Positions 273 through 16,367 of a stretch of 21,903 nt of DNA are shown piece by piece; positions within the stretch are counted from its first letter, which is position 1; every line of letters begins with the position of its first letter. The notes below the pieces were generated by a model that made no database searches, had not been told where the DNA came from, and saw only the letters and a program-made list of their open reading frames with translations. Source of the DNA: a virus. Position numbers and translations under genes: made by a program. The stretch lies in UHGV virus genome UHGV-0149790. One strand, given 5' to 3'.

Positions 273-310
273 TGGTCTTTCCTCAGTTAAATCGCGCTGG
301 TCAGGCGCGG

Positions 311-1699: not shown

Positions 1700-2688
1700 A
1701 GCGATCCCTCACGAGTTTTACGCAATGTTTCAGGCTTCATCAGGTAGTCAAAGCTGGCGCGCCATCCGCCATTTTCACCAAAGTAAAAATCGGAGGCGTC
1801 AGCGCGGAATTTTTCGAAATAGCCCAGAAATGCGCCCGTGGTTTTGTTTTTCATATGGGCGGCCAGACGGGTGATCATCCGGCGGCGGTCGGTGTCGAGT
1901 TCAGCAGCAGGCAGAGCGTCAGCAAAAATTTCGTTGTAGCCGTTCATAACGGCTTCGGGGTCAATATCGGCTTCGGTCACCGCCCATGCTTCAGCGTCAG
2001 CGAGATAACCATCAAAGCGGTTTACCCGGCAGATGTTCGCTGGCTTCGGCAGGCTATCGCCACGGCGGCGCCATGTGGCCAGCACCCAGCGGATAACTAA
2101 CTGCAATTCGTCCAGGGTGTAACCTTCCCGGGTGGTGGTCGGCGTCAGCATCATCACAAACGGTTTCAGGTCACGGCAGCGGGTACCGGTTTGCTCGTTG
2201 TAAAATTCCAGCGCTTTTTGTGCATCAGAAAGAATTAACTCAACGCCTTCCCCCTCTAAGGGGTTAGGGGTATATATATTCTCTGTAGTATTCTCTGTAA
2301 GAAAGTTTGCTGGTTTTCCACTTACTTGTTTGCTGGTTTTCCGCATTCCAGTATGTGGTTTTTCCGCATTCTTGTTTGCGGCTACAAGTGATTGAAATAA
2401 AACATCATTATCAATCTTGTAGAAAAGACGAGCAGGTACACCTTTCTTTTTTTCCAGCAGTACACCAATTGAGCGAAGTTTCTTACGCGCCCCCTCCTGT
2501 TCGTAACGGGAAAGGCCTGTTTCTTCCTCCCATTCTTCCTGGGTTTTATATACCCATCCATCATCGTCGGATCGGTTAGTCCAGTAAGTCATTTGAGACA
2601 GGAACAGTGCAGCCGTCACACCGATATTCAGGCGAATGAAACTACGCTGGAAGGCGATCGGCCTGTCGAGTAATGGCAAAATATTCAT
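1696..2688 (-). CDS. phage replication initiation protein (O-like replisome organiser) with origin iterons inside the coding sequence
   Basis: 330-aa ORF; two-domain layout with a Lys/Thr/Asn-rich linker coinciding with a direct-repeat array at 2305-2383; sits immediately upstream of, and coupled to, the helicase gene. Confidence 0.75.
   Translation of the reverse strand: MNILPLLDRPIAFQRSFIRLNIGVTAALFLSQMTYWTNRSDDDGWVYKTQEEWEEETGLSRYEQEGARKKLRSIGVLLEKKKGVPARLFYKIDNDVLFQSLVAANKNAEKPHTGMRKTSKQVSGKPANFLTENTTENIYTPNPLEGEGVELILSDAQKALEFYNEQTGTRCRDLKPFVMMLTPTTTREGYTLDELQLVIRWVLATWRRRGDSLPKPANICRVNRFDGYLADAEAWAVTEADIDPEAVMNGYNEIFADALPAAELDTDRRRMITRLAAHMKNKTTGAFLGYFEKFRADASDFYFGENGGWRASFDYLMKPETLRKTREGSL
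2266..2430. repeat. ori-like element: four iterons at 23-bp spacing flanked by AT-rich DNA
   Basis: GTTTGCTGGTTTTCC-like repeats starting at 2305, 2328, 2351 and 2374; CTCTGTA x2 at 2281-2299; AT-rich stretch 2391-2430; all inside the O-like gene, as with lambda ori. Confidence 0.55.
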
Positions 2689-2690
2689 AC

Positions 2691-2912
2691 TCAGATCCCC
2701 AGCGAGTCAGCCAGCTGGCGGCAGGCGATTTCATATTCTTTCTGGGTGAGTCCCGCTTCCTGCAGGTCTGCTTTGCGCAGCTCGTAGCGTTCCCAGATTG
2801 TCAGCGCAGCAGCGCGACGTTCCTCGAAAATCAATTCGATATCTTCTATCGGGACTTGTACCCCGTTCCGGCGAAACCCGTTCCGCCAGGTGATGCGGTC
2901 TTGTGTTCTCAT
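2691..2912 (-). CDS. small hypothetical protein (73 aa) between the CII-like gene and the replication initiator
   Basis: ATG at 2912-2910 preceded by an exact GAGGAAAGACCA motif; stop overlaps the RBS of the O-like gene. The 162-aa track ORF 2691..3179 is an upstream extension that clashes with the CII-like gene. Confidence 0.5.
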   Translation of the reverse strand: MRTQDRITWRNGFRRNGVQVPIEDIELIFEERRAAALTIWERYELRKADLQEAGLTQKEYEIACRQLADSLGI

Positions 2913-2932
2913 TGGTCTTTCCTCGGTACAGG

Positions 2933-3379
2933 TTAAACGCTGGTCAGGCGCTGTGTTTCTCGCATAGCTTGCAATGCTCTGGCGACTTGCTGCGGCCCGT
3001 CTCTGGCGTCGAGTAACAACGCGATAATCGCCGCGGCAAACTCGCGAATGGCCACACAAATTAAATACTGAGTGGACATACCCAAGCGCGCGTAACGTTC
3101 TGCCGGCAGCGCCGCTTCCATCGCTTTGACCAGCGCCAGAGTTTTGGCTCTCGCGGCTTTGGTCTCGCCTCGCAACCAACGAAAAATTTGTTGGCGGTTG
3201 TTGTTGATTGCCCGCCAGTCGGCGTTTCCATCTGCATCTTCGATCTGGTGCAGCTTCAGCGAACCGGTATTACCACCAAGACGAAACCACATGCGGCTTA
3301 TCTCGATAGCAACCAGCTCCTGCCCGCTTTCCGCTGCCCAGTTAAAGATCTCTCGTTTAAGTTCTTCGAGGTATTCCAC
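2933..3379 (-). CDS. CII-position regulatory protein, possibly YdaT-family
   Basis: 148-aa helical ORF directly downstream of the Cro-like gene; GTG start at 3379 with AGGAGA 9 nt upstream. Family assignment is from recalled similarity only. Confidence 0.5.
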   Translation of the reverse strand: MEYLEELKREIFNWAAESGQELVAIEISRMWFRLGGNTGSLKLHQIEDADGNADWRAINNNRQQIFRWLRGETKAARAKTLALVKAMEAALPAERYARLGMSTQYLICVAIREFAAAIIALLLDARDGPQQVARALQAMRETQRLTSV

Positions 3380-3441
3380 TTCGAGCGTCTCCTGTCGCTG
3401 AAAATTGATTAAGCGTAATCAGATTTCGATGCCGCTAATTG

Positions 3442-3636
3442 TTAAGCTGATTTGGCTGGCAGTTGGTAAGCCTTTGGGTCATAAACAAGTTCGCCATCAG
3501 TCATCAGAGACAAACGAGCCGCTTTACCTTCAGGAACCAAACGCCCCCACGCATAGACAGTAGGAGCCTTAACGCCAGCGGCCTCAGCCAGTTTTCTCTT
3601 ACTACCAAAATATTTGATCGCATCAGTTGTTAACAT
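3442..3636 (-). CDS. Cro-like HTH regulator (DicC/YdaS type)
   Basis: 64-aa ORF (YFGSKRKLAEAAGV...LVPEGKAARL...GELVYDPKAY) divergent from the repressor gene; AGGAGG RBS; promoter and operators immediately upstream. Confidence 0.75.
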   Translation of the reverse strand: MLTTDAIKYFGSKRKLAEAAGVKAPTVYAWGRLVPEGKAARLSLMTDGELVYDPKAYQLPAKSA

Positions 3637-3650
3637 GAAACACCCTCCTG

Positions 3651-3714
3651 TTAGATTTTTCTAACAAATTAGGTGTTCGAGATAACGAAGTCAAGGAAAT
3701 TTAGAATTATCTAA
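3651..3714. promoter_or_regulatory. OR-like region: two 14-bp palindromic operators and a pR-like promoter for the Cro-like gene
   Basis: TTAGATTTTTCTAA (3651-3664) and TTAGAATTATCTAA (3701-3714). Minus-strand promoter: -35 TTGACT (3694-3689), 17-bp spacer, -10 TAATTT (3671-3666). The first operator overlaps the -10/start site; the second abuts the repressor start codon. Confidence 0.6.
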
Positions 3715-3716
3715 CT

Positions 3717-4103
3717 ATGACAATGCCAGGTGAGCGCATCAGAGCGCGTAGAAAAGATCTCAAACTTACTCAGCGCGCTTTAGCGAAGCTGGTTAACGTC
3801 GCGCACGTCACTATCTCCCAGTGGGAGACCGGTGATAGTGAGCCTGGCGGAAAAAACCTTTTCGCTTTAAGTAACGCACTTCAATGCAGCCCTACCTGGA
3901 TACTTTACGGCGATGAAGCCGCCACTCCGGGAACCCCGGTAGACACCCCGCCGCCATTAGATGAACGAGAAACAGAGCTTTTAAAACTCTTTTCGTCACT
4001 CCCAGAATCTGAAAAAGAGCGGCATTTAACGGAACTTCGCGAAAAAGTAGACGGTTTCAATCGTTTATTTGAGGAGTTACTGCAAGCCCGCAAACAAAAA
4101 TAA
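3717..4103 (+). CDS. short HTH-XRE prophage repressor (DicA-like; no peptidase S24 domain)
   Basis: 128 aa; N-terminal HTH (GERIRARRKDLKLTQRALAKL...ISQWETGDSEPGGKNLFALSNALQCSPTWILYGDE) closely resembles recalled DicA; no Ala-Gly/Ser-Lys autocleavage module; divergent from the Cro-like gene. Confidence 0.85.
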   Translation: MTMPGERIRARRKDLKLTQRALAKLVNVAHVTISQWETGDSEPGGKNLFALSNALQCSPTWILYGDEAATPGTPVDTPPPLDERETELLKLFSSLPESEKERHLTELREKVDGFNRLFEELLQARKQK

Positions 4104-4168
4104 TCCCTTTCTAATCAGTTAGATGCATTTTTTTACGCCCATTGTGTTCGTTTTCTCTAATTTAATCA

Positions 4169-4197
4169 TTGACCAAATTGTTAGATTTATCTAAATT
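4169..4197 (+). promoter_or_regulatory. pL-like promoter with an embedded operator
   Basis: -35 TTGACC (4169-4174), 17-bp spacer, -10 TAAATT (4192-4197); third operator copy TTAGATTTATCTAA at 4181-4194 lies in the spacer/-10. Confidence 0.5.
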
Positions 4198-4348
4198 ACA
4201 TCACATCAACGACGCACTAACCACGCGGCAGTTGTTCAGAAACAGTTCTGACAGTCCGGAAAGACGGGCGCGAATTCTTCGGGTCGCCGACAGTACGATG
4301 ACATGCGGGAAAGACCGCAACGAATGCGAATTGCTGTGTGTAGTCTTG

Positions 4349-4373
4349 GCCCGGGCGCCCCGGGCATTTTTTT
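4349..4373 (+). terminator. intrinsic terminator about 150 nt downstream of the pL-like promoter
   Basis: Perfect 7-bp GC stem GCCCGGG-cgc-CCCGGGC (4349-4365) followed by a run of seven T (4367-4373). Confidence 0.7.
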
Positions 4374-4454
4374 AAAGCATTCACGCAGTAACGAGGAAAG
4401 ACCAATGGGGCTGACCACCCTGACAGCCGGGAAAGACCGGCAACCTTCAGGCGT

Positions 4455-4476
4455 AAAAAAGCCCACCGAAGTGGGC
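4455..4476 (-). terminator. intrinsic terminator on the minus strand, convergent with the plus-strand terminator
   Basis: GCCCAC-cgaa-GTGGGC hairpin (4461-4476) flanked by AAAAAA at 4455-4460, i.e. a T-run after the stem when read on the minus strand. Confidence 0.5.
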
Positions 4477-4597
4477 TAATTTACCCGGGACAGTGACCAA
4501 ACCGCCCAGAATGCTACAGGGGACCAACCCTGTAGCGAGGAAAGACCAACGACAGAGCCGCTGATCGGCTCTGAGTATATATCATCAAGGAGTCGCT

Positions 4598-4921
4598 ATG
4601 GAAGCGCTTACCATCCCCGTAACTATTTACGTTATGGCCACAACCAACCCATATCTACCAACGTCTTATCACTCATTCACCTGTGACATGTCACAGCAAT
4701 ACCCTGATCTGTATGTCCTCGTTACTACCAAAACGGTAGAGGTTGCCATTCCAGCTTTAGAGCCAATCGACATTATTGGTATGCAGGTTAATGCCCTTCG
4801 TGCGAAGAAAGAGAAAATCTCTGCCGAAGCAAAGAAGGAGCTGGGTGTTATTGAAGACCAGATTCAGCAGCTGCTGTGCATCGATCACTCTCCAATTGAA
4901 GAAAGCGACGTACCGTTTTAA
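4598..4921 (+). CDS. hypothetical protein, first gene of the left operon
   Basis: 107-aa ORF with AAGGAG RBS 6 nt upstream; acidic and not arginine-rich, so not N-like. Confidence 0.6.
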   Translation: MEALTIPVTIYVMATTNPYLPTSYHSFTCDMSQQYPDLYVLVTTKTVEVAIPALEPIDIIGMQVNALRAKKEKISAEAKKELGVIEDQIQQLLCIDHSPIEESDVPF

Positions 4922-4965
4922 TTAACCGGCGCGTGACCTGCGCCAGTAACCAAGAGGAAAGACCA

Positions 4966-7164
4966 ATGACCATCTACAACGGCTCATTTGAGCCAAAGAA
5001 ATCGGCGATTAAAGACTGCGGCGCCGTGCAGCTGGCGATCGCCATCGATGCGCCAAACAAAAAAGTGGCCGAAAGCATTATGACCGGCAAACTCTGGGAA
5101 TCATACCCGGCCAATGGTGACAACTATTTCAAACCGAAACTGTGGGAACACGTTGAAGGCCAGCCGCTGCCGACCGTTGGCCAGTTCGATGAGTCATTCG
5201 CCCAGCAGCATACTTTTGACGGTGAAAAATGGGTTTCTACTGCGCAGGATAGCGCTTCCGGAAGTGGTGCAGGTTTACCTGCCGACGATGAAGTGATCGA
5301 CCTGATGACCGTTTCCCCTGATGAACGCTTTGCTGCCGTCCTGCTTTTTAGTACCGCGGCGATTGATGGCCATCTTTATTCTCAGGTTGTGGATTATCTG
5401 GATAATCTGAAAAACCACGATGGGGAATTTGAAGAGGAAGATCGCTTTAACTTTAATGTTCTGTGTGCCCTGCAAAATAACTTCCCGGTTCAAAGCATGC
5501 ATGTGGAAGGTCTGAACAATCTTATTCAGGGTATTTTCTCCCACTTTGAAAACCAGACGCCGGGCAAAGCGGCTATCTCTCAGTTCGTTAAACGCTGGCT
5601 TGAGAATCCGGGCAAGCGCGACGAACTGGCCCCCGGCGTATATAAAAATACCGCTCTCAGCACCAGCACCAGCACCAGCACCAGCACCAGCACCAGCACC
5701 AGCACCAGCACCAGCACCGATGATAAAACACCCGTGGTAATTTCTAAGCGCGGATATAAACACACTTATGCAACGCTGGATCAGGAGATCGCTACCGCCC
5801 TTCTCCCGCTGGCGCCTGATGCGCCGGTACTATCCGGAAACCTTCTGGACGCTAAGAAGATGATTTCCGATGACCGGGAAGATTTTAAACGCTGGTCAGC
5901 ATCGCTGCACACCACGCCGCAGATACTCAAATACGACCGCGCCAGCATCTTCGGCGTGGTACAAAACGTACCGGCGAAAGATACCTACCATTTCCCTGAC
6001 AGCCTGCGCCGCCATATCGATTCATGGCTGGCGGCCAACGGCCGCTTTGAGGAAACCGAGACAGGATCCGTTAAACAACCAGAGGCGACGCAAAATACCG
6101 CCTCAAACGTGGGCGAAAAAGTGGAAGCGCAGCAGCCGGTTGTAACCGACACCCAGGCCAAACAGGCGCGTGAGACGCTCAATGATATGGGTTATGGCGT
6201 ATATGCCTCTGGTGAAGGTGCAGAGCCGGAAGAGAAGTTAAGCGTTAAGGCTGAAAAACTGGCTGATGATTCCGAGCGTTTAGCAAAACAAATCGCTCAC
6301 GCTGAAAGCCTGCCTAACGCTGAGGATGTTGTGCAGGCTGTCGGAAAACCAATCATCGGGGAAGACAATTTAGACCTCTGGAAACGCGTATTTAAAACCG
6401 ACGAAAGGTTTACTAAGGCTTTCACACAGAACGGCGGTGGCACCTCGATCAACGGTACCTACATGACCATGCTTGCCACACGTGAGTTTGGCCCTAAGGG
6501 CATCGGCTGGGGCGTGGATATTGTTGAAGAGCGTTTCGATATTGGCGCGCCGATCACTCGGCAAGTAAAAGGCAAAGACAACAACGCATCGTGGGAGCTG
6601 GTTCTTGATGGGAATGGTAATACCGTCAACGAACAGCACCATGTTGTGACTGTCCGGCTCTGGTACATCCTGAACGGAGTACGAGGTGAGGAAACAGCAT
6701 ACGGCTGTACACCCTACATTTACGGTAGTAAATACGGGATCACCTGCGACGGCGAAGCAGCCAAAAAATCACTGACAGATGCGACCAAAAAAGCGTTATC
6801 CGGCCTCGGATTCAGTGGCGATATCTTTATGGGGCTTTACGACAATCTGGAGTACCGCCAGAAGAACAAGGCCGAGTTTGACCTGAAGAACGCCAGCGAA
6901 TCAGCCGAAGATGCAGCACGGCTCCGCCAGGAGTTTGACGATAAATTAAGCCGCGTTGCTAATACCCTGGCGCATGGCGTGACGGTGAACGAAATCAACG
7001 GTGTGTTTTCCCCTATCGCACGTGAGATCGATGTTCACATTAAAGCCGCCCAGGCCAACGGCGACACGCAGCATGAACGTTATCTGTCTGGCCGGCTCCG
7101 CCGACTCATCTCCATCAAAGATGGGCGCATTAAAGAACTGAATAAAGCCGAGGAGAAAGCATAA
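4966..7164 (+). CDS. large recombination protein: N-terminal region of unknown function, (Ser-Thr)10 linker, C-terminal Rad52-like single-strand annealing domain
   Basis: ATG at 4966 preceded by GAGGAAAGACCA; C-terminal motif GCTPYIYGSKYGITCDGEAAKKSLTDATKKALSGLGFSGDIFMGLYD matches the Rad52/Sak signature (K-x-A-V-T-D-x-x-K-R-A-L-x-x-F-G); 733 aa from this start. Confidence 0.7.
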   Translation: MTIYNGSFEPKKSAIKDCGAVQLAIAIDAPNKKVAESIMTGKLWESYPANGDNYFKPKLWEHVEGQPLPTVGQFDESFAQQHTFDGEKWVSTAQDSASGSGAGLPADDEVIDLMTVSPDERFAAVLLFSTAAIDGHLYSQVVDYLDNLKNHDGEFEEEDRFNFNVLCALQNNFPVQSMHVEGLNNLIQGIFSHFENQTPGKAAISQFVKRWLENPGKRDELAPGVYKNTALSTSTSTSTSTSTSTSTSTSTDDKTPVVISKRGYKHTYATLDQEIATALLPLAPDAPVLSGNLLDAKKMISDDREDFKRWSASLHTTPQILKYDRASIFGVVQNVPAKDTYHFPDSLRRHIDSWLAANGRFEETETGSVKQPEATQNTASNVGEKVEAQQPVVTDTQAKQARETLNDMGYGVYASGEGAEPEEKLSVKAEKLADDSERLAKQIAHAESLPNAEDVVQAVGKPIIGEDNLDLWKRVFKTDERFTKAFTQNGGGTSINGTYMTMLATREFGPKGIGWGVDIVEERFDIGAPITRQVKGKDNNASWELVLDGNGNTVNEQHHVVTVRLWYILNGVRGEETAYGCTPYIYGSKYGITCDGEAAKKSLTDATKKALSGLGFSGDIFMGLYDNLEYRQKNKAEFDLKNASESAEDAARLRQEFDDKLSRVANTLAHGVTVNEINGVFSPIAREIDVHIKAAQANGDTQHERYLSGRLRRLISIKDGRIKELNKAEEKA
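5659..5718. repeat. perfect hexanucleotide tandem repeat (AGCACC)x10 encoding (Ser-Thr)10
   Basis: Ten uninterrupted AGCACC units read directly in the sequence, in frame within the 4966..7164 CDS. Confidence 0.95.
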
Positions 7165-7730
7165 TGACTTCCACCACTGCAATTGCTATCGCAGCCGATA
7201 TGTCAAAACTCCAGGCACTACTGGAAAACGAAGACGGTGCTGGTCTGTCTCCTGAAATGATCGCCGACACAATGGAAGGTCTTGAGTTACAACTCGGCGA
7301 TAAACTGGATGCCGTTTTCGTCCACGTTCGCAATCTGGAAGGCCTGGCAAAAACCTGCGATGAAGAGGCCAAACGCCTTGCCGCCCGCAAAAAATCATTC
7401 GAAGGTAAGATCACGAACCTGAAGAAATATGTTCTCCAGTGTCTACTGGCCGCCGGTCAGGATACGGTTAAAACCGCCAAAAATACCTTTACCGCACGTA
7501 AGGGAGCTATAAACGTCGTGATCGATAATGATGAATTACTGCCGGATGAATTAGTGACAGTTCAGACGTTAGTCACTCCGGACAAGAAAGCCATCAAGGA
7601 AGCGATTGAATCAGCACAGGCAGCGGCGGCCCAGATTACCGCTGACGGCGGAGAGATACCGGAAGAACTGTTAAACCCAGTGCCGGGCGCTCACCTTGAG
7701 ATTGGCGAACGTTCGCTGCAGGTGCGCTGA
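7164..7730 (+). CDS. Gam-like / Gp157-family protein (candidate DNA-end-binding accessory)
   Basis: 188 aa; start overlaps the upstream stop (TAATG); N-terminal coiled-coil plus a C-terminal pattern resembling Mu Gam; family call from recall, moderate confidence. Confidence 0.5.
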   Translation: MTSTTAIAIAADMSKLQALLENEDGAGLSPEMIADTMEGLELQLGDKLDAVFVHVRNLEGLAKTCDEEAKRLAARKKSFEGKITNLKKYVLQCLLAAGQDTVKTAKNTFTARKGAINVVIDNDELLPDELVTVQTLVTPDKKAIKEAIESAQAAAAQITADGGEIPEELLNPVPGAHLEIGERSLQVR

Positions 7731-7731
7731 T

Positions 7732-7917
7732 ATGCTGAAACTCACACTGAAACGAGGCGACGCGCTTCACGTCGTTTTTCCGGACGGTACTAACGGGATA
7801 ATCGAAGCCTGCGCGCGTTGTGAACTGGCTATGCATTTTCCGCGCAGTGCCAAAATCACCCGCGAAAATGGCGCGTTCCGGAATAAACCAAACCTGATTA
7901 AGCCTAATCAGAAATAA
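7732..7917 (+). CDS. small beta-rich protein (61 aa), CsrA-like or AbrB/MazE-like N-terminus
   Basis: ATG at 7732, 1 nt after the upstream stop; MLKLTLKRGDALHVV...FPRSAKITREN matches CsrA (MLILTRRVGETL...APKEVSVHREE) in length and pattern, but also resembles swapped-hairpin proteins. Confidence 0.5.
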   Translation: MLKLTLKRGDALHVVFPDGTNGIIEACARCELAMHFPRSAKITRENGAFRNKPNLIKPNQK

Positions 7918-7966
7918 CTCGCAACTGTCGTTAGCATTGTGATCTACCTATGAACCGGAGATCACA

Positions 7967-8191
7967 ATGCTACGTTGGCAACCAGGCACACTTTTACTTT
8001 CAGATTTCGATATCAAAATTGGCAGGCTATCAGCCAGCGTTAGAAAGAGGACTCTGACCCAGTCCGATATCCAACGCGCTTGCGATACGGCAGACAACGC
8101 GATAGCCGGCATGCTGAGGAAAGACCATGAGACACGATCACGACATCATCACCAGAGAGGAAATGATCGAACTGACGGGGACCCCACTTAA
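7967..8191 (+). CDS. hypothetical small basic protein
   Basis: 74-aa ORF whose ATG sits in the 3' arm of an 11-bp perfect inverted repeat; overlaps the excisionase-like ORF in another frame; weak support. Confidence 0.3.
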   Translation: MLRWQPGTLLLSDFDIKIGRLSASVRKRTLTQSDIQRACDTADNAIAGMLRKDHETRSRHHHQRGNDRTDGDPT

Positions 8192-8372
8192 ATCGAGGCA
8201 GTGTGAAGCGCTACGTCGGGCCGGTGTCTTTTTCATGGAAAGGGCAGACGGCCATCCTAAAACGACGTGGGGCCATTTCCTGAACCCGATTAAATACCGC
8301 AACCAGCAGGAAGAGACGGTGCGGGAGGAAGAACCAGACTTCGGAGCTATCTTTAATGGCCGGAAAACGTAA
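8127..8372 (+). CDS. excisionase-like DNA-binding protein
   Basis: 81-aa ORF immediately upstream of and overlapping the integrase start; the ITREEMIELTG...ALRRAGVFF segment fits small winged-helix excisionases; positional support. Confidence 0.5.
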   Translation: MRHDHDIITREEMIELTGTPLKSRQCEALRRAGVFFMERADGHPKTTWGHFLNPIKYRNQQEETVREEEPDFGAIFNGRKT

Positions 8373-9372
8373 GAACCCCGCTGATAACTGGATGCCGCCC
8401 CGCGTGTATCGCGGTAAGGCGGCGTATGAATTCAGGAATAAAGATAACAAGGCTATCAGGCTATGTGCGCTCTCCGAGCCTCAATCAGCTGTATGGCTGG
8501 CATATGAAAAAGCCATGGGAGAAGAAGTCGAGCGCAAGACGTTTCAGGCTCTGGCCGATCAATTCATGTCTTCCCCTGACTGGCAGGATTTAGCGGCAGA
8601 AACCCGAAAAGACTACACGAAATACGCAGGCAAAGTGTTGCCGGTGTTCGGGAAGGTTAACCCCGATAAAATTAAACCGGAACACATCCGGCGCTATATG
8701 GATCAGCGTGGCATGGCCAGTAAAACGCAGGCCAACCGGGAAAAGAGTTTTCTTTCTCGGGTATTCCGCTGGGGTTATGAGCGGGGTTACGTCCAGCATA
8801 ATCCCTGTCAGGGCGTTAAGAAGTTCAAAGAGGCAGCCCGGGAGCGTTACATCACCGACGAAGAATACAAAGCGGTTTACGATGTTGCTCCAGACGTAGT
8901 TCGCGCCACCATGGAAATCGCTTATTTGTGTCTGGCCAGACAAAGCGATGTGCTGGCTTTGACTGAAGACCAGATACGCGAAACCGGGATCTTTATCCGC
9001 CAGGGGAAAACAGGCGTGAAGCAAATCAAAGCATGGTCGCCACGCCTGCGCGCCGCTGTCGCCCTCGCCCGTTCCCTGCCGTTAAAGCCGGGTATCCGTA
9101 GCCTGTTTGTCATTCACCAGACCAGCGGCAGCAAATACACCCGTGACGGTTTTAATTCACGCTGGCGCGACGCGAAAATCGCAGCGCAGGAAAAGAACCC
9201 ACACCTGCAGATAGATTTCACTTTCCACGATCTGAAAGCGAAAGGTGTCTCTGATCTGGAAGGAAGCCTCGAGGAGAAACAGGCGATTTCAGGCCATAAG
9301 AATTCGAGACAAACGGCGATTTACGACAGGAAAACTAAAATTGTGCCGGTTGTTGGTGGTCAGAAAAAATGA
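8356..9372 (+). CDS. int: tyrosine site-specific integrase (lambda Int family)
   Basis: 338 aa; C-terminal catalytic region with HDLKAKGVSD, GHKNSRQTAIY and the terminal Tyr; 3' end faces the att core 120 bp away. Confidence 0.9.
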   Translation: MAGKRKNPADNWMPPRVYRGKAAYEFRNKDNKAIRLCALSEPQSAVWLAYEKAMGEEVERKTFQALADQFMSSPDWQDLAAETRKDYTKYAGKVLPVFGKVNPDKIKPEHIRRYMDQRGMASKTQANREKSFLSRVFRWGYERGYVQHNPCQGVKKFKEAARERYITDEEYKAVYDVAPDVVRATMEIAYLCLARQSDVLALTEDQIRETGIFIRQGKTGVKQIKAWSPRLRAAVALARSLPLKPGIRSLFVIHQTSGSKYTRDGFNSRWRDAKIAAQEKNPHLQIDFTFHDLKAKGVSDLEGSLEEKQAISGHKNSRQTAIYDRKTKIVPVVGGQKK

Positions 9373-9433
9373 ATCGCTATGCGTTCGTTGAAAAATCATC
9401 TTCGGACGCATCTTCGGAAAGGAGAGTTTCAGA

Positions 9434-9458
9434 TACAAAAAAACCACCCGTAGGTGGT
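9434..9458 (-). terminator. intrinsic terminator between int and the att core, strongest on the minus strand
   Basis: AACCACC-cgta-GGTGGTT stem (9441-9458) preceded by AAAAAAA (9434-9440), a T7 run after the hairpin on the minus strand. Confidence 0.55.
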
Positions 9459-9492
9459 TTCACGACACTGCTTATTGCTTTGATTATTCTGC

Positions 9493-9548
9493 TTTATCCC
9501 AATGGTACCCGGAGCGGGACTTGAACCCGCACAGCGCGAACGCCGAGG
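9493..9548 (-). other. att core: 56-nt 3'-terminal fragment of tRNA-Leu (anticodon UAA), not an intact tRNA gene
   Basis: Minus strand reads ATTTAAAATCCCTCGGCGTTCGCGCTGTGCGGGTTCAAGTCCCGCTCCGGGTACCA: anticodon loop, long variable arm, T-arm GGTTCAAGTCC, acceptor 3' strand and CCA. The 5' half of the tRNA is absent (sequence diverges at 9549). Confidence 0.75.
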
Positions 9549-9696
9549 GATTTTAAATTGGTGGTGATTATTCTAAATATCAAATAGATATGAAAAAAAT
9601 CCGAACATACGCTAATAAACTAGCATCATGAAAACAATAAGTTACAGCAATGTTTTAGACTATCTTCTGACGCTTATCATACCTCAAATTCAATAT

Positions 9697-9936
9697 TTAT
9701 TCAGTCGCGCGGTACCACGATTGCCAGCGGTAGATATTCGTACGTAACTCCCGCACACACTCTGCTGACTGTGTATCCGCCAGCAGATCAGCGTCGCTAT
9801 CTGCGCCAGCGTTACTTATCTTGCACGGTCGGTTCATCAAATCCGGGGATGGCGTTGGCCGCGTCGATTGCTCGTTGGCGCAGCTGCACAGCAGCAGGAT
9901 CAAACTGGCACACAGTACGATTCGGGTCATTGACAT
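9697..9936 (-). CDS. Rz1-like o-spanin (outer-membrane lipoprotein), overlapping the Rz gene
   Basis: Signal-like N-terminus MSMTRIVLCASLILLLCSCANE with Cys near the cleavage region, Pro-rich mature part; out-of-frame overlap with Rz and extends past it. Confidence 0.5.
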   Translation of the reverse strand: MSMTRIVLCASLILLLCSCANEQSTRPTPSPDLMNRPCKISNAGADSDADLLADTQSAECVRELRTNIYRWQSWYRATE

Positions 9937-10171
9937 ATTTCACCACATCACGATAAACGGTACGGTAAATCACTTTGGCTTCGGCGTTCGCCGTCGCTGC
10001 TTTCTGCTCACCAGCGGCAACTGCCTTTTCCTGCTTCGGTAGCCTTTGTTTAGCCTGGCTGTTTACTTGCTCTGAATGTGCGTACCAGCCTTTCAGATAC
10101 CCCGCCCAGTAAATCCCGGCGCATACCGCCAGCACGCCACCAACAATCACCAGTTTGGTTTTTCCGTTCAT
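9812..10171 (-). CDS. Rz-like i-spanin
   Basis: N-terminal TM segment (KLVIVGGVLAVCAGIYWAGYL) then a charged, Ala/Gln-rich periplasmic domain; ATG at 10171 overlaps the endolysin stop (ATGA). Confidence 0.7.
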   Translation of the reverse strand: MNGKTKLVIVGGVLAVCAGIYWAGYLKGWYAHSEQVNSQAKQRLPKQEKAVAAGEQKAATANAEAKVIYRTVYRDVVKYVNDPNRTVCQFDPAAVQLRQRAIDAANAIPGFDEPTVQDK

Positions 10172-10704
10172 TCGTACAGCCCCCAGCACGTCAAAGCGCT
10201 TTCCTGATCGCGGCGGTCAACCTGCCCGTAGCAGCCATTCTTCTGGCCTTTGGTCAGTCGGCAATCCCGGCCTCCGTCGAACACCCATCGCCGGATCTCC
10301 GCGCATGCACCTTTACGGTCGCCTGCGTTCAGCTTGCGATAGAACGTTGAGGGGAAGCATTTACCCGGCCCGATGTTGTACGGGCAGAATGAGGCTATGC
10401 CGACCTTCTGCGGCGGCGTCAAAGAAACGAGCACATTCTTTTCTACCCAGGCAAGCGCCTTATCACGCTCAATGGCGTTTACCTTCCTGCACTGTTCCTC
10501 AGTTGCTCTTTGGCCCTTAATGACACGCTTGCCATCTATAACGGTTACTCCGTGGCACAATGACCACACACCGCCGGGGTCAACAACGGCCACCAGCGCG
10601 TTACCTTCTTTTTCGCTGATAAACTGATCGAACAGTATCGGTGCAGATGCACCGGCGGCCAGAAGCGCCAGCATAGCGGCGCTGAACTTAGCTTTGTTGC
10701 TCAT
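10168..10704 (-). CDS. SAR endolysin (T4-type lysozyme fold, phage 21 R-like)
   Basis: Start at 10704 ([25 protein letters not shown] = signal-anchor-release segment); catalytic-region pattern E...D...T and C-terminal [14 protein letters not shown]...ALTCWG resemble recalled R21; overlaps the holin 3' end. Confidence 0.85.
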
Positions 10705-10918
10705 AGTCCTGTGCCTTCCGCCGGTCGTCTTTGATTTTGAAGTACAAATTAGTGAGGTAGGTAAGCAGCCCAAAAACAATACTGGCCAGTACGCCAATAG
10801 CCGCCCACTGGCTGGGGCTTACCTTATCGAGAAGTTGCAGCAGCCAGTAGCTCCCGCTGACAGTGGATGTGATGTACGACGTGCCAGCCGCCACATCCGG
10901 TAAATTCTTCATTCGCAT
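10688..10918 (-). CDS. pinholin (class II holin, phage 21 S-like) with dual-start motif
   Basis: 76 aa; ...[43 protein letters not shown] matches recalled S21; starts Met-Arg-Met, the classic antiholin/holin dual start. Confidence 0.85.
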
Positions 10919-10975
10919 GCCTTACCCCCATGGGGATCACTATGTGGAGTGATGCGAGGGTAAGGCGAAGCTAAG

Positions 10976-10989
10976 GTCAGAATCCTGAC
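10976..10989. repeat. 14-bp palindrome GTCAGAATCCTGAC (copy 1 of 2)
   Basis: Perfect inverted repeat 57 nt upstream of the holin start on the minus strand, at the edge of an AT-rich island. Confidence 0.6.
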
Positions 10990-11000
10990 TAAATGAAATT

Positions 11001-11270
11001 CTATATTTGGAGTTTTCTTTTAAGTGATTCCTCTGCCTCTTCAAGAGGGCTTCCTGACCCAGAATACACAAAAGAATGGGTAAGCTCCCCACAGGAAAGA
11101 CAACCATCAATGCTAACTTTAAATGAAACAGTCGCTGTTCCATTATTTAGCGATATTAACGATACAGCCTGGTATTCAACTTCAATCGATGTATCTTCTG
11201 ATGGCATCCATACACCTAGCGTTGGATATGCTATAGATTTTCCTATGGTCTGCGTCACTCTGAAAGTCAT
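11001..11270 (-). CDS. hypothetical protein in an AT-rich island between tailspike and holin
   Basis: ATG at 11270 with GAGG 5 nt upstream, overlapping the tailspike stop; 89 aa, beta-rich; a plus-strand ORF (10993..11283) covers the same DNA, so strand is uncertain. Confidence 0.35.
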   Translation of the reverse strand: MTFRVTQTIGKSIAYPTLGVWMPSEDTSIEVEYQAVSLISLNNGTATVSFKVSIDGCLSCGELTHSFVYSGSGSPLEEAEESLKRKLQI

Positions 11271-11277
11271 ATTAGCC

Positions 11278-13797
11278 TCATGAATTAAAAGGAACAACAT
11301 AATCAAAAGTACACTGGAGAGTAAAATCAAAAGTACCAGCTGCTTGAGAATATATTTCTTGGGCTGACGATTTTATAATCGTCATTTGATTTGTCCCTGC
11401 AGGAACAAGCGGCATAACAAAAACTCCTGTAGCCGTGCTTAGAATTATGCTTCCTTTAGACCCACCCTCCTGTATTGAGGCGGCTGTAAAAGGAAGACCA
11501 CTAATGACTATGGCTCCCGCAGTACTAACCAGTAAAGAGGTTGATCTGACTCTTATATCGCAACGAACAACATCACCAAACCTACGGTAAATTCCAGTAA
11601 TGGATGATGGCGTTACGCTTGCCCCGCCAATTGTAATAGTTGGTGTGAATGAGCCATAAAGATACTTAAACTGAGCAGCATTACCACCGGGAAAAGCTAT
11701 TGGCGGCATATAGGCATCATTTCGATTAAAAACATACTTATCGGATAAATTTGTTCCGTTTAACTCCTGAAGACCGAAAAGACGATAGTTTGAATTATCT
11801 CCAAGCTTTCTTTGAGCAACTATATTCTCACCGGCACCGATTCTTGTGCCGTTAAATTCATTAACTGGGGCAGCCTGAACCGCGCCACCTTTTACAATAT
11901 CAAGGGCGAAAATATTTCCTCTTGTTGCCATCGCTGGAAATGTTGAAAGAGATGGTTCGTAGGGATCAACATTATTAACATTAAATCTATTTCCAGCAAC
12001 ATCACCAAGGCCATACTTGATGATTCCTACCCTTTCCAGTATAAGAGTCCTTATTTTACTGTTACCAACATATGATTTAAATCCGTCAACGAATTGAGCA
12101 GAGTGGTAGAATGGCGTTCTTGGAGACCACAGCACTTTAGCCTCACCAATATTGCAATGCAATATCTCCCTTCCCGGAAGTGAAATAATAGTTCTTGCGC
12201 GCCCAGCTATACCTCTATAGGTATCAACTGGGTAAACCCCATTCTGCTGATTATTTGACAACCGACCACCGCTGGCCGTAGGCAAGCAGTTTGCAGACTT
12301 GAAAACATACGTATCAAACCAAGTGTCAAGAGCGGCATATGCTGGATGTGTCCAGTCCATGCCGGTATCACCATAATAATGAAACTTGTCTACATGGTAC
12401 GAATCATTCCATCCCGCCCGATGAATATCTGATGCCGGGTACGGCGGAAGGTACTGAGACGCGTATGCATGATTTCTCGTTAGCCAGCGCCCGCCAAAAA
12501 CAGGGCCTGTAATATTATACCAATATAATGTCAGCCCAGTTTGCGCCAGAGAATCAGATCCTTGATAACAAGCAGGAATGGCACACCCTGAGTACATCAT
12601 ATTATTTTCTACACAGCGGTTTACAGTCCCGTCTACCCATTGCCCAATAAAGAATCCGCTAATCCTGAAATCAGAAAGGTGATACTTTATGTATTGATCT
12701 GGTCCGCTGTCACCTGCGATGTATAGACCCATGGAAGATGTATGATCCCATGGTCCCGCAGTTTTTGAAAAATTACCAATAATCCCACAATTGTGTTGGT
12801 TTTCACCAACAATCATTGAATCATCATAAACACGCAGTGCTGCTTTTGCCTTAACTGGTATTTCAGGAGCAATATTTGAATCACCGTTCCCTATCCACCC
12901 TGGGTATACAGTCCCATCGTCGAATGGCAAATTAAACTCTATCGGTGAAGATATGCACGGATACATTTTAGTTAAATATACCGGAAGGTTATTAGCTTTT
13001 CCGTAATCTATAGCTGCCTGTAGAAATTTAGTTGCATCAGCAGTGATGCCGTGAATATATCTTTCACCATTAATCCTTATCATTTCAGGGGTTACGTATT
13101 TTATTGCATCTTCAACGGTGCCTCCAGTAAGAACCCCTATATGCCCGCTACCTGTCGGTTTGGCATACTCAATCATTACATCTGCTGCACTTCCACTCGA
13201 AGGCAATACCATCAATGGATTGCCATTATTATCCATTGCAACGATTTTATTTTTTCGTTCTGCAATGGAAGGTAACGGTGTGATGCTAGACTCCGGAACG
13301 CGTAGAGTACGAGCTAGATTAATTTTTCCATTTTCAATTACAAATTTTTTAGTAGCTGCATCCTGATCGTTAACTGGATCGGCCAGATTTGCTATCCGGT
13401 AGCCGTTAGCGTTGAAAGGTCCACCGCCGAACAGCGGGCGACTTAGGGCCACTCCGAGATAAATAAACGCGCGCTGAGTAGCCATCCAGAGACGGTCAAA
13501 ATCTTTGTTAACTGTATCGGCCAGCAGGTCGCCGTTGTCCTGGTAATCAGTGAGCCTGTAAGTCGGCGTTACACGTTCAAAAATGACTGTAGCGCCATTG
13601 GCCGGCGCGGTCAGAAAAGTAACTTCGCCACCGCCAGTATTACCCACACCAGACACTGTATAGCCGGACGTTACTTCGTTGCCGTTGATTGTGACCTGAA
13701 TATCGCTGGCGCTGATCAGGTAAAACTCATAGGCAAAGACAGTCGTCAGCCCGTTGGCGGTATAGATGTTATAGGGTGTCTGGTTCGGTACCGACAT
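11278..13797 (-). CDS. tailspike / tail fibre with T7 gp17-like N-terminal adaptor domain and probable beta-helix depolymerase body
   Basis: 839 aa; N-terminal approx. 150 aa (...NANGYRIANLADPVNDQDAATKKFV) parallel recalled T7 gp17 (...RGRRIVNLANAVDDRDAVPFGQL); Gly/Asn/Ser/Thr-rich repetitive body typical of polysaccharide depolymerases. Confidence 0.8.
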   Translation of the reverse strand: MSVPNQTPYNIYTANGLTTVFAYEFYLISASDIQVTINGNEVTSGYTVSGVGNTGGGEVTFLTAPANGATVIFERVTPTYRLTDYQDNGDLLADTVNKDFDRLWMATQRAFIYLGVALSRPLFGGGPFNANGYRIANLADPVNDQDAATKKFVIENGKINLARTLRVPESSITPLPSIAERKNKIVAMDNNGNPLMVLPSSGSAADVMIEYAKPTGSGHIGVLTGGTVEDAIKYVTPEMIRINGERYIHGITADATKFLQAAIDYGKANNLPVYLTKMYPCISSPIEFNLPFDDGTVYPGWIGNGDSNIAPEIPVKAKAALRVYDDSMIVGENQHNCGIIGNFSKTAGPWDHTSSMGLYIAGDSGPDQYIKYHLSDFRISGFFIGQWVDGTVNRCVENNMMYSGCAIPACYQGSDSLAQTGLTLYWYNITGPVFGGRWLTRNHAYASQYLPPYPASDIHRAGWNDSYHVDKFHYYGDTGMDWTHPAYAALDTWFDTYVFKSANCLPTASGGRLSNNQQNGVYPVDTYRGIAGRARTIISLPGREILHCNIGEAKVLWSPRTPFYHSAQFVDGFKSYVGNSKIRTLILERVGIIKYGLGDVAGNRFNVNNVDPYEPSLSTFPAMATRGNIFALDIVKGGAVQAAPVNEFNGTRIGAGENIVAQRKLGDNSNYRLFGLQELNGTNLSDKYVFNRNDAYMPPIAFPGGNAAQFKYLYGSFTPTITIGGASVTPSSITGIYRRFGDVVRCDIRVRSTSLLVSTAGAIVISGLPFTAASIQEGGSKGSIILSTATGVFVMPLVPAGTNQMTIIKSSAQEIYSQAAGTFDFTLQCTFDYVVPFNS

Positions 13798-13814
13798 ACG
13801 AGGAACTCCGGCGG

Positions 13815-15425
13815 CTAGTAATCTACGGCGACCATGTGATCGCCATCATTTGGTTGCCAATGTTCCCGCGCCTGTGCGGTCGGAATCCCGACCAATTTAC
13901 CAATGCGCACTGGTGTTGAGCTGATTGCGCCAGAGCCAGAGTCGATAAAGTCATCTGGCTGATTAGTCAGCGCCGGGTTAAAGTCGCGCATCTGGTCATA
14001 CATTGGGCCGTCGAGCACGTCGGTATGCGCCCAGAGGAAGCGCGACGACAGCGGCGCTTCGAATGCATCGAGGATGCGCTTTTGTTTATTGGTCACGCTG
14101 AATTCTTCCCGTACGCCGCAGCCGGTACCCTTTAGTGCCTGAATCAGCAATTTCCCGGCAAAGCTGCCCGGGCCGTTCACCTCGACGCAGACCAGCGGGA
14201 TCTGGTATTTAAGCACCAGCTCTTTAATCTGCATCACCTGACCGCCGGTGATTTTGTCGTTGTCGTCGAATTCCGCCAGTTCGCCCGTAAGCCCCTGGCA
14301 AACATGCCAGTACAGATGCCCGCGTGCGTCGGTGAAAATCAGAGAGAACGCCGAGGCGTCGGCCTTAACTTTGCCGGTGGCCACATCCCACCAGGCAACA
14401 GCACCAACAATTTGCGTCTGGCCAAGCCACATCGAGCAGGAGCGGTTCGCGTACCGGATTTCAGGCTGTACGTTGTATTCGCGTATGCGGTCGGGATCGA
14501 GACGAACCTCGCCAACCGGTTTACTGTGCAGCTGGTACTGGCTGTCCCATTCGTTAATTGTGCGAGTCTCGCGACGGCGCTTTGTCATTTCCTCCGGAGT
14601 GAACCTTTCTGGCCATTCACAATCGGCGTAACAGTCAACCGTGGTGCCGGGAGCCTCGGCAAACTCGATACCGTCATCGTTAAGACGATAATCAACACCT
14701 TCAACGAGCAGTCGCGCGCCAATGTGAATACCGACGAAAACATATTCCGGCCGGAACGGTAACGAGTAACGGCTCGCGGTGGCCTGTTTTTCCTCGATTC
14801 TAAATTCTTTACCGAATAGTTTGATGGTCAGACAGTCGGCGCCCATAGATTCAACCTCATCGTAAAGGCTATCGTGGGTATGCGGCGTGCCGATAAACAG
14901 CTTTCGCCCGCCGGGGACAAGAATGTGTGTCTGTTCACCGAGACGATAACGCAGCTTTTCCCGCGCCTCTGGCGTCTGGATATTGCGGGGTACTTCTACG
15001 TCATCGTTCTGGCATTCATCAGCGCGGGCCGAGGTAACGTTAGAGAGGATCCCCTTTGCGTACATGCTGCCGTTACGCATATCCAGAGAGCCGTTAACCC
15101 ACCACTGTTCAACGGTTCCCTGTCCGTCCGGTAGCATGCCTTTGGTCAGTGGGTGATTGCGTAAAACGTTCTGCGTATCGCGGCTGGTTTTGTACGCGGT
15201 GCCGTCAGCTTCAGACTGGTGAAGAATGCGGTACTGGCGGTTCTGGTAATATCGCCATGCGTTATACACCGCCAGAATGGTAGATTTACCAAAGCCACGA
15301 AAACAGCGAAGCACCGCGAGATCCCCGCGGTGTTCCAACCAGTGGCAGGCTCGATAATGGCAGTCGGGAACCTCCCACCCCATCCGCTCCGCCCATATGA
15401 TGAAAAAGGCGACGAATGAAATCAT
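13815..15425 (-). CDS. terminase large subunit, T7 gp19 type
   Basis: 536 aa; CFRGFGKSTI (cf. T7 AFRGIGKSFI) and TSARADECQNDDVEVPRNIQTPEAREKL (cf. T7 [27 protein letters not shown]); start overlaps the upstream stop (ATGA). Confidence 0.9.
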   Translation of the reverse strand: MISFVAFFIIWAERMGWEVPDCHYRACHWLEHRGDLAVLRCFRGFGKSTILAVYNAWRYYQNRQYRILHQSEADGTAYKTSRDTQNVLRNHPLTKGMLPDGQGTVEQWWVNGSLDMRNGSMYAKGILSNVTSARADECQNDDVEVPRNIQTPEAREKLRYRLGEQTHILVPGGRKLFIGTPHTHDSLYDEVESMGADCLTIKLFGKEFRIEEKQATASRYSLPFRPEYVFVGIHIGARLLVEGVDYRLNDDGIEFAEAPGTTVDCYADCEWPERFTPEEMTKRRRETRTINEWDSQYQLHSKPVGEVRLDPDRIREYNVQPEIRYANRSCSMWLGQTQIVGAVAWWDVATGKVKADASAFSLIFTDARGHLYWHVCQGLTGELAEFDDNDKITGGQVMQIKELVLKYQIPLVCVEVNGPGSFAGKLLIQALKGTGCGVREEFSVTNKQKRILDAFEAPLSSRFLWAHTDVLDGPMYDQMRDFNPALTNQPDDFIDSGSGAISSTPVRIGKLVGIPTAQAREHWQPNDGDHMVAVDY

Positions 15426-15763
15426 TTTTTCCGCTGTTGTATGCGTTCGATAACTTCCTGTGCTGCCCGTTCAGCCGCAGATACCTGTTGCCCCAGGCGG
15501 AATGCTTCATCGTCCGGATCCTCGCCGGGTTTAGGCGTCCCCCCGCGCGTATGCATGCCAATCAGCGAATGGACTTTTACCAGCAGCGTCAGCGATGCGG
15601 CCGCGTTCTTCTTATGCCAGTACCGATCACCGCGTTCCTGTTTAGTGTGCTTTGTGATTTCCTTCCCTGCCCCCGGCCAGTTGTCCGGATCGGCTTCTTC
15701 CAGAACTACATCGGTGAGCTTATCGCTAAGAGCAGTAAGGCGAGTTTTGTAATCTGAATGCAT
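15422..15763 (-). CDS. putative terminase small subunit (positional inference)
   Basis: 113-aa ORF translationally coupled to the large terminase gene; no sequence signature recognised. Confidence 0.4.
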   Translation of the reverse strand: MHSDYKTRLTALSDKLTDVVLEEADPDNWPGAGKEITKHTKQERGDRYWHKKNAAASLTLLVKVHSLIGMHTRGGTPKPGEDPDDEAFRLGQQVSAAERAAQEVIERIQQRKK

Positions 15764-15811
15764 AAAAAAGCCCCGTGGTTATCCATAGAGCTATGATGTA
15801 TTCTTTTTGAG

Positions 15812-15825
15812 GTCGGAATCCTGAC
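15812..15825. repeat. 14-bp near-palindrome GTCGGAATCCTGAC (copy 2 of 2)
   Basis: One mismatch to the 10976-10989 copy, with shared flanks GGTC.GAATCCTGACTA; 48 nt upstream of the small-terminase start on the minus strand and 20 nt upstream of the plus-strand moron ORF. Confidence 0.6.
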
Positions 15826-15845
15826 TATCACAAGGAGTAAATAGA

Positions 15846-16364
15846 ATGAAGATATTAATTCCATTGTTGCTAATCTTTCACTTTGCAGCATTCGCATCAA
15901 CCGATTTAGTTGATGACTCTAAATATATCGTTCCTATATCCGGACCAGGAATACAGATTACCAATCCATATACCGACTATACGGTCATTAACGGTATCGA
16001 CACTGGTAAAAAAATTGAGATCCATGTATCGGTATTACACTTGCGAACCTATAAAGAAAACGCAGATTTTAGTGAAACTAATACTCACTATGTGGAAGGA
16101 AGTAAAACCATATCTAGTTACAATGCCAATGTTTACACAGACGATTTTATAAAATTTACATCAGAAGACGCTAAAAATTCAACATTGAAAAATTTAAGGG
16201 ATTTGTATTGTGCACCAGATGGATTTTACCCAGTGTCATCTCAAGAGCGGCTATTCTACGAAACCCGAAAAGAAAATAAAAAAATAATGATCAATTACTA
16301 CAGTGATTCAGGGAAAACCCTCATGTTTGGGTTTGGGGTTTCCCCCGAATCATGTAAGTCGTAA
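15846..16364 (+). CDS. secreted or periplasmic protein of unknown function encoded by an AT-rich moron, opposite in orientation to the late operon
   Basis: 172 aa; AAGGAG RBS 9 nt upstream; signal peptide MKILIPLLLIFHFAAFAS; markedly AT-rich, wedged between two minus-strand late genes. Confidence 0.7.
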   Translation: MKILIPLLLIFHFAAFASTDLVDDSKYIVPISGPGIQITNPYTDYTVINGIDTGKKIEIHVSVLHLRTYKENADFSETNTHYVEGSKTISSYNANVYTDDFIKFTSEDAKNSTLKNLRDLYCAPDGFYPVSSQERLFYETRKENKKIMINYYSDSGKTLMFGFGVSPESCKS

Positions 16365-16367
16365 TAG

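Follow-up and report, generated by a model that had tools for sequence, protein, structure and literature searches.

Gene content of the window

The stretch of viral DNA analysed (21,903 nt, UHGV virus genome UHGV-0149790) is referred to in its full length as the window, and all positions given are window positions. Two groups of genes converge on the intergenic segment studied, as had already been described in a first-pass annotation made from the sequence. To the left of the segment, an excisionase gene (8127–8372) and an integrase gene (8356–9372) are encoded on the plus strand. To the right, the genes for an Rz1-like lipoprotein (9697–9936), Rz, endolysin, a tail protein, TerL, and T7-type internal virion proteins are encoded on the minus strand. 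The genes nearest to the segment are as follows:

8127–8372, plus strand: xis, excisionase (recombination directionality factor) of 81 aa; phrog_1266 (E=1.7e-33), Pfam DUF4224 (E=2.6e-14)
8356–9372, plus strand: tyrosine integrase of 338 aa; phrog_1, PF00589 (E=1.6e-9), PF22022 (E=5.7e-9)
9697–9936, minus strand: Rz1-like o-spanin with signal peptide and lipobox (...LLLCSC); from the translation and from phrog_5672/phrog_2536 for the spanin pair
9812–10189, minus strand: Rz i-spanin, overlapping the Rz1-like gene, the pair forming the end of the late operon; phrog_5672/phrog_2536 for the spanin pair

The phage genome is mosaic: its early region is lambdoid (DnaB, RepO, cI-like repressor, exonuclease, Gam, xis, and int), and its virion and packaging module is T7/SP6-like (two internal virion proteins, of 865 and 964 aa, with TerL and a tail protein). 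The nearest named phages with respect to TerL are the Yersinia phages YeP4, YeP5, and YeP6 (80 % amino acid identity). The early region (window 1–8130) is 85.6 % identical at the nucleotide level to Stenotrophomonas phage vB_SmeS_BUCT708/709, an odd host label for an early module that is otherwise found in enterobacterial prophages; the integrases of BUCT708/709 and of the window share only 48 % identity. Across the att region, none of the deposited phage genomes is close to the window.

A 172-aa open reading frame (15846–16364, plus strand) runs antisense to the late operon, between a terS-like gene and the gene for the 964-aa internal protein. It gave no match in a Pfam search. In an E. coli relative, a hypothetical gene for 130 aa occupies the equivalent place with the same orientation; the reading frame may be a moron.

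The tRNA fragment and the host-identical block

The 3′-terminal 56 nt of tRNA-Leu(UAA), corresponding to tRNA positions 32–87, were found as an exact match on the minus strand at 9503–9558 when the sequence was compared by script with tRNA-Leu(UAA) of E. coli and Klebsiella. The first-pass annotation had recognised the fragment and its length correctly, with coordinates (9493–9548) that were shifted by 10 nt. Neither a complete tRNA gene nor a full cloverleaf was detected by ARAGORN in the whole window. Rfam likewise returned no tRNA match with E≤1 in 9000–10200; its two matches, both sub-threshold, were the terminator hairpin described below (to STnc130) and a spurious lncRNA. The segment 9503–9558 is not a functional tRNA gene, in agreement with its earlier designation as an att core.

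The fragment forms part of a longer stretch of host-identical sequence:

9435–9558: host-identical attB-region block of 124 bp, composed of 56 nt of the leuZ 3′ part and 68 bp of downstream DNA
9440–9461, minus strand: intrinsic terminator hairpin (stem 9441–9448/9453–9460), the phage copy of the glyW-cysT-leuZ operon terminator

The gene leuZ encodes tRNA-Leu(UAA) and is the last of the glyW-cysT-leuZ operon. Over its whole length (the 56 nt of the tRNA, or 124 bp with the downstream DNA), the block matches, without a single difference, the empty leuZ loci found in K. grimontii, K. michiganensis, and K. oxytoca (L003–L005). An exact search with a 41-mer that extends from the tRNA 3′ end into the downstream DNA matched only three of 185,579 species-representative genomes, namely those of the same three species. 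The locus is unoccupied in all three and shows the order yecA side, terminator, tRNA-Leu, tRNA-Cys, tRNA-Gly; the alignment to host tRNA-Leu genes that had been proposed as a check was thus exact, and an intact target is present. Because the identity is perfect in these species and only about 90–92 % in E. coli genomes, the Klebsiella oxytoca complex is the likely host as judged from sequence identity. In general, the allele of the block follows the host, being of the E. coli type in L002 and of the K. oxytoca type in the window.

The hairpin was scored as a terminator on the minus strand only (9461→9440, with a T-run after it), and its sequence is identical in the unoccupied host loci. In one relative (L057) the stem sequence differs and the hairpin is still formed. 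Since it lies within the host-identical block, it is a copy of the operon terminator and not a separate element between int and core; the terminator annotated there previously is real, with a different affiliation. Its assignment as the terminator of int itself was considered and rejected on the basis of the minus-strand-only score and the host identity; a weak bidirectional effect is possible.

Prophage junctions and configuration of the window

Scaffolds carrying phage–host junctions were located by exact-protein look-ups. One scaffold (L173) is 100 % identical to window 9435–10235 (801 nt, no mismatch), and exactly to the left of 9435 it continues in host DNA (DHDPS, UPF0149/yecA). Two others (L170 and L172) encode an integrase identical to that of the window and share 98.7 % nucleotide identity with window 5308–9558; exactly to the right of 9558 they continue with the 5′ half of tRNA-Leu, followed by tRNA-Cys, tRNA-Gly, pgsA, and uvrC. 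An intact tRNA-Leu was identified by ARAGORN beside the identical int in L170 and L172, and also in many relatives. Junctions with the fragment only were found in L173 and L001. The gene is accordingly intact at one end of the prophage and its displaced fragment lies at the other, as in 3′-end restoration. The test across attL and attR that the first-pass annotation had suggested was in this way carried out in silico, and both junctions were recovered.

A further contig with the identical int (L171, JGI 3300011638 contig; 4017–4476) continues with tRNA-Gly only, tRNA-Leu and tRNA-Cys being absent, and its match to the window ends at 9511. A deletion may be the reason, or a collapse of the assembly between the 3′ ends of tRNAs.

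A syntenic prophage of 35.5 kb is present in E. coli 23GD11002 between leuZ and yecA. Its order, starting from tRNA-Leu, is int, xis, gam, exo, cI, cro, RepO, DnaB, ..., portal, capsid, ..., SLT protein, 964-aa protein, terL, tail, holin, lysozyme, and Rz, followed by yecA. Window 1–9558 aligns with one end of this prophage, and the opposite end corresponds to window 9425–21849. Many IMG/VR prophage contigs also have int at one end and Rz at the other. The 23GD11002 prophage additionally contains an ISEc20 (IS110-like) transposase gene beside a DUF2971 gene (L166 22697–23893), a stretch without a homologue in the window.

The window contains one block only, with a phage arm on each side of it (P′-O-P), and is therefore in the unintegrated (attP) configuration, as had been proposed from the arrangement of the genes; no host gene adjoins the fragment. 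This form is that of a free genome, a circular genome, or the middle junction of a tandem array. From the window, free or circular DNA and a tandem middle junction look the same, and the first-pass annotation had allowed for a phage, an episomal, or a tandem arrangement.

The joined arrangement was searched for elsewhere. A gapped attP pattern retrieved a single metagenome contig (OLQX01001335.1) in the attP form, with 86 % identity over 1.6 kb and with all four of the arm sites described below retained; this contig is related to the window and is not its source. Neither the gapped pattern nor the exact junction between block and right arm gave a match in IMG/VR, and the attP junction was not found in E. 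coli genomes. The window was not present as an episome in PLSDB, and no plasmid record there contained the attP junction; the matches obtained were chromosome-sized or chromosome-derived records carrying the tRNA block or a prophage junction. An IMG/VR contig with the block at both ends (3300045988_090300) was considered as evidence of a circular genome and was set aside as ambiguous, because assemblies also break at attL/attR repeats.

Position of the crossover

The two block copies of the 23GD11002 lysogen were used to locate the crossover. In the int-side copy the allele is not that of E. coli and includes a compensating T-stem pair (equivalents of 9515 and 9529), and the yecA-side copy has the E. 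coli allele. The copies differ at the equivalents of 9529, 9515, and further left, and they are identical from 9530 to 9558 only; strand exchange therefore occurred within these 29 bp, at the anticodon end of the block:

9530–9558: interval of 29 bp containing the strand-exchange (overlap) region; from the allele pattern in the 23GD11002 lysogen

By analogy, the 7-bp overlap is likely to be the anticodon loop (9551–9557), which lies at the edge of the identity block. This placement leans on general knowledge of tRNA-targeting tyrosine integrases. The block outside the crossover interval is passenger DNA that rebuilds the 3′ part of the tRNA and the terminator.

The functional leuZ of 23GD11002 is itself a chimera (L166 10444–10660, compared with L001 6000–6140), with the 3′ part and the terminator of a non-E. 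coli allele. This chimera suggests an earlier residence of the phage in another genus.

Integrase and excisionase

The xis gene is directly adjacent to int and overlaps its start. The AF2 model of Int (pLDDT 85) shows an N-terminal three-stranded sheet (residues 17–19, 23–27, and 33–38) followed by a helix (43–56), with pLDDT values of about 83–88 over residues 17–56. The best Foldseek match was full-length lambda Int (1z1b_A, E=4e-14, 344 aligned columns); full-length lambda Int chains aligned over 344–362 columns, in comparison with about 280 for the 75–356 constructs. At the sequence level, residues 1–60 gave no Pfam match, and a search with residues 1–70 gave no PDB match. The integrase is predicted from the model to be a three-domain lambda-type Int with an N-terminal arm-binding domain.

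In the profile alignment, R195, K218, H291, H314, and Y323 fall on R212, K235, H308, H333, and Y342 of lambda Int, so that the tyrosine-recombinase catalytic domain has its nucleophile Tyr. The RKHRH pentad is not complete: Lys294 (motif FTFHDLKAKG, codon at about 9235–9237) occupies the position of Arg311 in lambda Int, so that the family has FTFHDLK where lambda Int has HELR. Lys294 is invariant in 52 aligned homologues, is found in 117 of 120 database homologues, and is also present in mEp390. In the available part of a survey of tyrosine recombinases, the pentad is otherwise strictly preserved, and Lys in place of the second Arg is not among the exceptions listed (PMC8138268). Integrated as well as attP forms occur, so the family is evidently functional, and Lys294 represents a variation, not an inactivating change. 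The chemistry of an integrase with Lys294 may differ in detail from that of lambda Int.

Candidate arm-type sites

Four candidate arm-type sites were identified on the two sides of the block:

9398–9406, plus strand: int-proximal (P′) arm, copy 1, ATCTTCGGA; from the repeat and its conservation
9410–9418, plus strand: P′ arm, copy 2, ATCTTCGGA; 12-bp period
9600–9608, minus strand: lysis-proximal (P) arm, inverted, ATGTTCGGA; 42 bp from the block end
9662–9670, plus strand: P arm, direct, ATCTTCTGA (8/9 match); 104 bp from the block end

The tandem pair corresponds to the direct repeat reported in the first-pass annotation (CATCTTCGGA at 9397–9406 and 9409–9418). An inverted TTCGGA had been noted as well, and it exists, at 9600–9605 within ATGTTCGGA and not at 9580–9590 (about 15–20 nt off). 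The fourth site (9662–9670) had been missed; several relatives have a perfect ATCTTCGGA at this position. The repeated sites thus lie on both arms and are distinct from the core sequence, and the int-proximal ones are about 140–160 bp from the presumed crossover.

The degenerate motif ATSTTCGGA occurs three times in the 21.9 kb (0.37 expected), all within 210 bp around the block, and TTCGGA occurs four times (12 expected), three of these at the att site. The motif was picked after the sequence had been seen, and the comparative evidence weighs more than these occurrence counts. In 16 related loci and the window (nine unique sequences), the left-arm tandem pair is invariant. In the right arm (16 unique sequences), 17 of the 18 site columns are invariant, in comparison with 17 of 112 elsewhere, and TCCGAACATA at the inverted site is invariant in all 16 with diverged surroundings.

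With integrases of 61–68 % identity, other tandem repeats (ATCTTCTGAA, ATATAGYGAAA, and ATATGGCGAA) are found at the same place after the int stop codon. The arrangement is compared for three motifs below (offsets from the block end):

Window, motif ATCTTCGGA: P′ arm, direct at −160 and −148; P arm, inverted at +42 and direct at +104
L067, motif ATATAGYGAAA: int-proximal arm, direct at −170, −157, and −146; far arm, inverted at +42 and direct at +107
mEp390, motif ATGGCGAA: four tandem copies after the int stop codon; far arm, inverted at +42 and direct at +107

That the motif changes along with the integrase while the geometry is kept is the main argument for reading the sites as protein-binding arm sites; together with the invariance in close relatives, it supports the arm-type sites proposed earlier. 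That all four ATCTTCGGA-like sites are bound by the N-terminal domain of Int is inferred from the sequence comparison.

Core-adjacent and IHF-like sites

Two further elements lie between the block and the inverted arm site:

9559–9566: conserved core-adjacent phage sequence TGGTGGTG; TGGT invariant, five of eight columns invariant in 16 diverged right arms
9578–9590, plus strand: IHF-like site TATCAAATAGATA, between core and inverted arm site; one mismatch to WATCAANNNNTTR

The first of these is a candidate core-type Int site (C). IHF consensus matches with one mismatch were additionally found at 9473–9485 (minus strand) and 9632–9644 (plus strand), and all three are suitably placed with respect to the core and the arm sites. 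Conserved ATCA and TTA islands are present at the IHF-like matches; the ATCA island belongs to the site at 9578–9590, where several relatives match the consensus perfectly. Over the whole window, IHF-like matches are not enriched (23, with 18.5 expected), the three at the att site having one mismatch each. The site at 9578–9590 may, from its sequence and position, be a bending site. Promoter-like matches in the right arm (three, with 1.2±1.3 expected) are not significant.

Proposed mechanism

Window 9397–9670 is, with high confidence, the attP of a temperate podovirus-type phage of the K. oxytoca complex that integrates into leuZ. This reading is based on the host identity of the block, both prophage junctions, synteny, the conservation and covariation of the sites, and the predicted fold of Int.

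In the mechanism proposed, Int would act as a lambda-type heterobivalent tyrosine recombinase. Its C-terminal domains would cut and rejoin the DNA at the right end of the 124-bp block, most likely in the anticodon loop (9551–9557). Its N-terminal domain would bind the four ATCTTCGGA-like sites, that is, the two direct sites by int and, on the lysis arm, the inverted site at +42 and the direct site at +104, with the intervening DNA presumably bent by IHF-like proteins. On integration, int, the P′ arm, and the phage copy of the tRNA 3′ part with the operon terminator come to lie beside the host tRNA 5′ part, and an intact, terminated leuZ is regenerated. The displaced host tRNA 3′ fragment is then found beside the lysis genes on the yecA side. 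The adjacent Xis would direct excision, a role assigned from its family and position.

Alternative explanations

Three other explanations were weighed. The window might derive from a chromosome with two prophages in tandem at leuZ, the site being an internal junction that is locally identical to attP. Tandem occupancy of leuZ does occur: in L037, L038, and L042, int is followed by the 56-nt fragment and by a second, P2-like integrase of another element. In L050, L062, L068, and L084, no tRNA-Leu follows the fragment and no matching arm site is present to its right, and a window of 21.9 kb is compatible with host DNA farther out. Only a tandem of the same phage or of sister phages would fit the window, however, since both of its arms carry matching arm-type sites at the canonical spacing of the family, and both of its halves are syntenic with one single prophage. 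The junction is moreover present in one metagenome contig and in no E. coli genome, plasmid record, or IMG/VR contig. A tandem origin is for these reasons considered unlikely, and the site is an attP whether the genome is free or the junction lies within a tandem. A simple junction between prophage and host (attL or attR), or else a tRNA pseudogene in decay that has no relation to integration, would be suggested by degraded islands, which also show a partial tRNA beside an integrase. Phage genes are nevertheless present on both sides in the window, the actual junctions of this phage with host DNA have been identified and depart from the window exactly at 9435 and 9558, the identity to the host gene is 100 % over 56 nt (124 bp with the terminator), and the arrangement is conserved in relatives. 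This explanation has a negligible probability, and it was rejected on the strength of the host-identity block, the prophage synteny, and the junctions observed.

It is quite improbable that the ATCTTCGGA-like motifs bind Xis or another regulator (e.g., a repressor) in place of the N-terminal domain of Int. The sites occur on both arms and in both orientations, with the tandem cluster directly beside int, and the Int model has a suitable predicted arm-binding domain. In lambda, three arm sites are clustered on the int-proximal arm, and the Xis sites are restricted to one arm. The arm-type sites of lambda Int are also distributed over both the P and the P′ arm, five in total (PMC4880445). Directionality factors, on the other side, also bind direct repeats in att arms, as at the lambda Xis sites X1, X1.5, and X2 (PMC4880445), and in the present phage Xis is co-inherited with Int, so that covariation with Int cannot separate the two. 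Binding by Int is the reading retained for the four sites.

In the three loci with a second integrase (L037, L038, and L042; 4148–5310), which are heterologous tandem arrays, the window-type int and the fragment directly precede a convergent gene for a 333-aa P2-like integrase and a repressor-like gene.

Significance

For an otherwise unlabelled phage, the analysis gives a host, the Klebsiella oxytoca complex, and the precise place of integration, leuZ, which lies between yecA and pgsA-uvrC; the DNA of the window is recognised as an excised or replicative configuration. The attP is fully mapped with respect to its core interval, its four arm sites, and the boundaries of the block. Possible applications are the calling of prophage boundaries and use as an integration tool for Klebsiella and E. 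coli. Mechanistically, this is a textbook case of lambda-type integration into a tRNA gene with 3′-end restoration, and the surprise is small. No deposited phage is close to the window, and the site therefore adds a new example to a known type of attP. A more far-reaching proposal can be advanced only tentatively, and we would sooner doubt than assert it: the phage may represent a distinct lambda-like system in which the integrase family naturally uses Lys294 and the 124-bp block serves as an exchangeable host-matching cassette, a cross-genus jump being recorded in the 23GD11002 chimera.

Comparison with known systems

Lambda attP with Int, Xis, and IHF is the reference system (PMC4880445). 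As in lambda, int and xis lie beside attP and late genes converge on it from the other side; several arm-type sites are distributed over the two arms, those beside int forming a tandem cluster, and an N-terminal arm-binding domain is predicted in addition to the core-binding and catalytic domains. The span of the site is also similar (about 275 bp here, 240 bp in lambda). In contrast to the intergenic site of lambda, the target here is a tRNA gene, and the host-identical block of 124 bp is far longer than the short common core of lambda. The lambda common core has about 15 bp. Four arm sites of a different sequence are found here in place of five in lambda. The P′ sites of lambda are tens of bp from the core and hence nearer to it than the int-proximal sites of the window. 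The two integrases share only about 17 % sequence identity, and Box II contains Lys in place of Arg311 of lambda Int.

The elements described by the Islander concept, in which tRNA-targeting islands and prophages restore the 3′ end of the gene (PMC4383910), agree with the present phage in that the tRNA gene is split, the 3′ part is supplied by the element, and a displaced fragment marks the far end; all of this was seen directly here. Unlike in those elements, the replacement reaches 68 bp past the tRNA, so that the operon terminator is replaced too. The leuZ gene is a known integration hotspot in E. coli (PMC7067040). The leuZ prophages of the E. coli ST131 type and of 23GD11002 have the gene order and the int/att module of the window, with 78–89 % nucleotide identity; the ST131-type prophages carry the E. 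coli-type allele of the block, whereas the window carries the K. oxytoca type.

Another close counterpart is Enterobacteria phage mEp390, in whose GenBank record (JQ182729) a homologous block of 121 bp is annotated as 'putative prophage insertion site (attP)'. Its integrase belongs to the same family (61 % amino acid identity), and, as in the window, the leuZ 3′ part and terminator block lie beside int (87 % nucleotide identity over window 9438–9558). The arm-site geometry is also that of the window, with a tandem cluster after the int stop codon, an inverted site at +42, and a direct site at +107 (+104 in the window). The two differ in the arm motif, which is ATGGCGAA in mEp390, and in their backgrounds, mEp390 being a lambdoid Hendrixvirinae phage from E. 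coli whose far arm carries other genes, one for a tail fiber among them. As mEp390 is a sequenced phage genome, its attP form is a genuine free-phage form.
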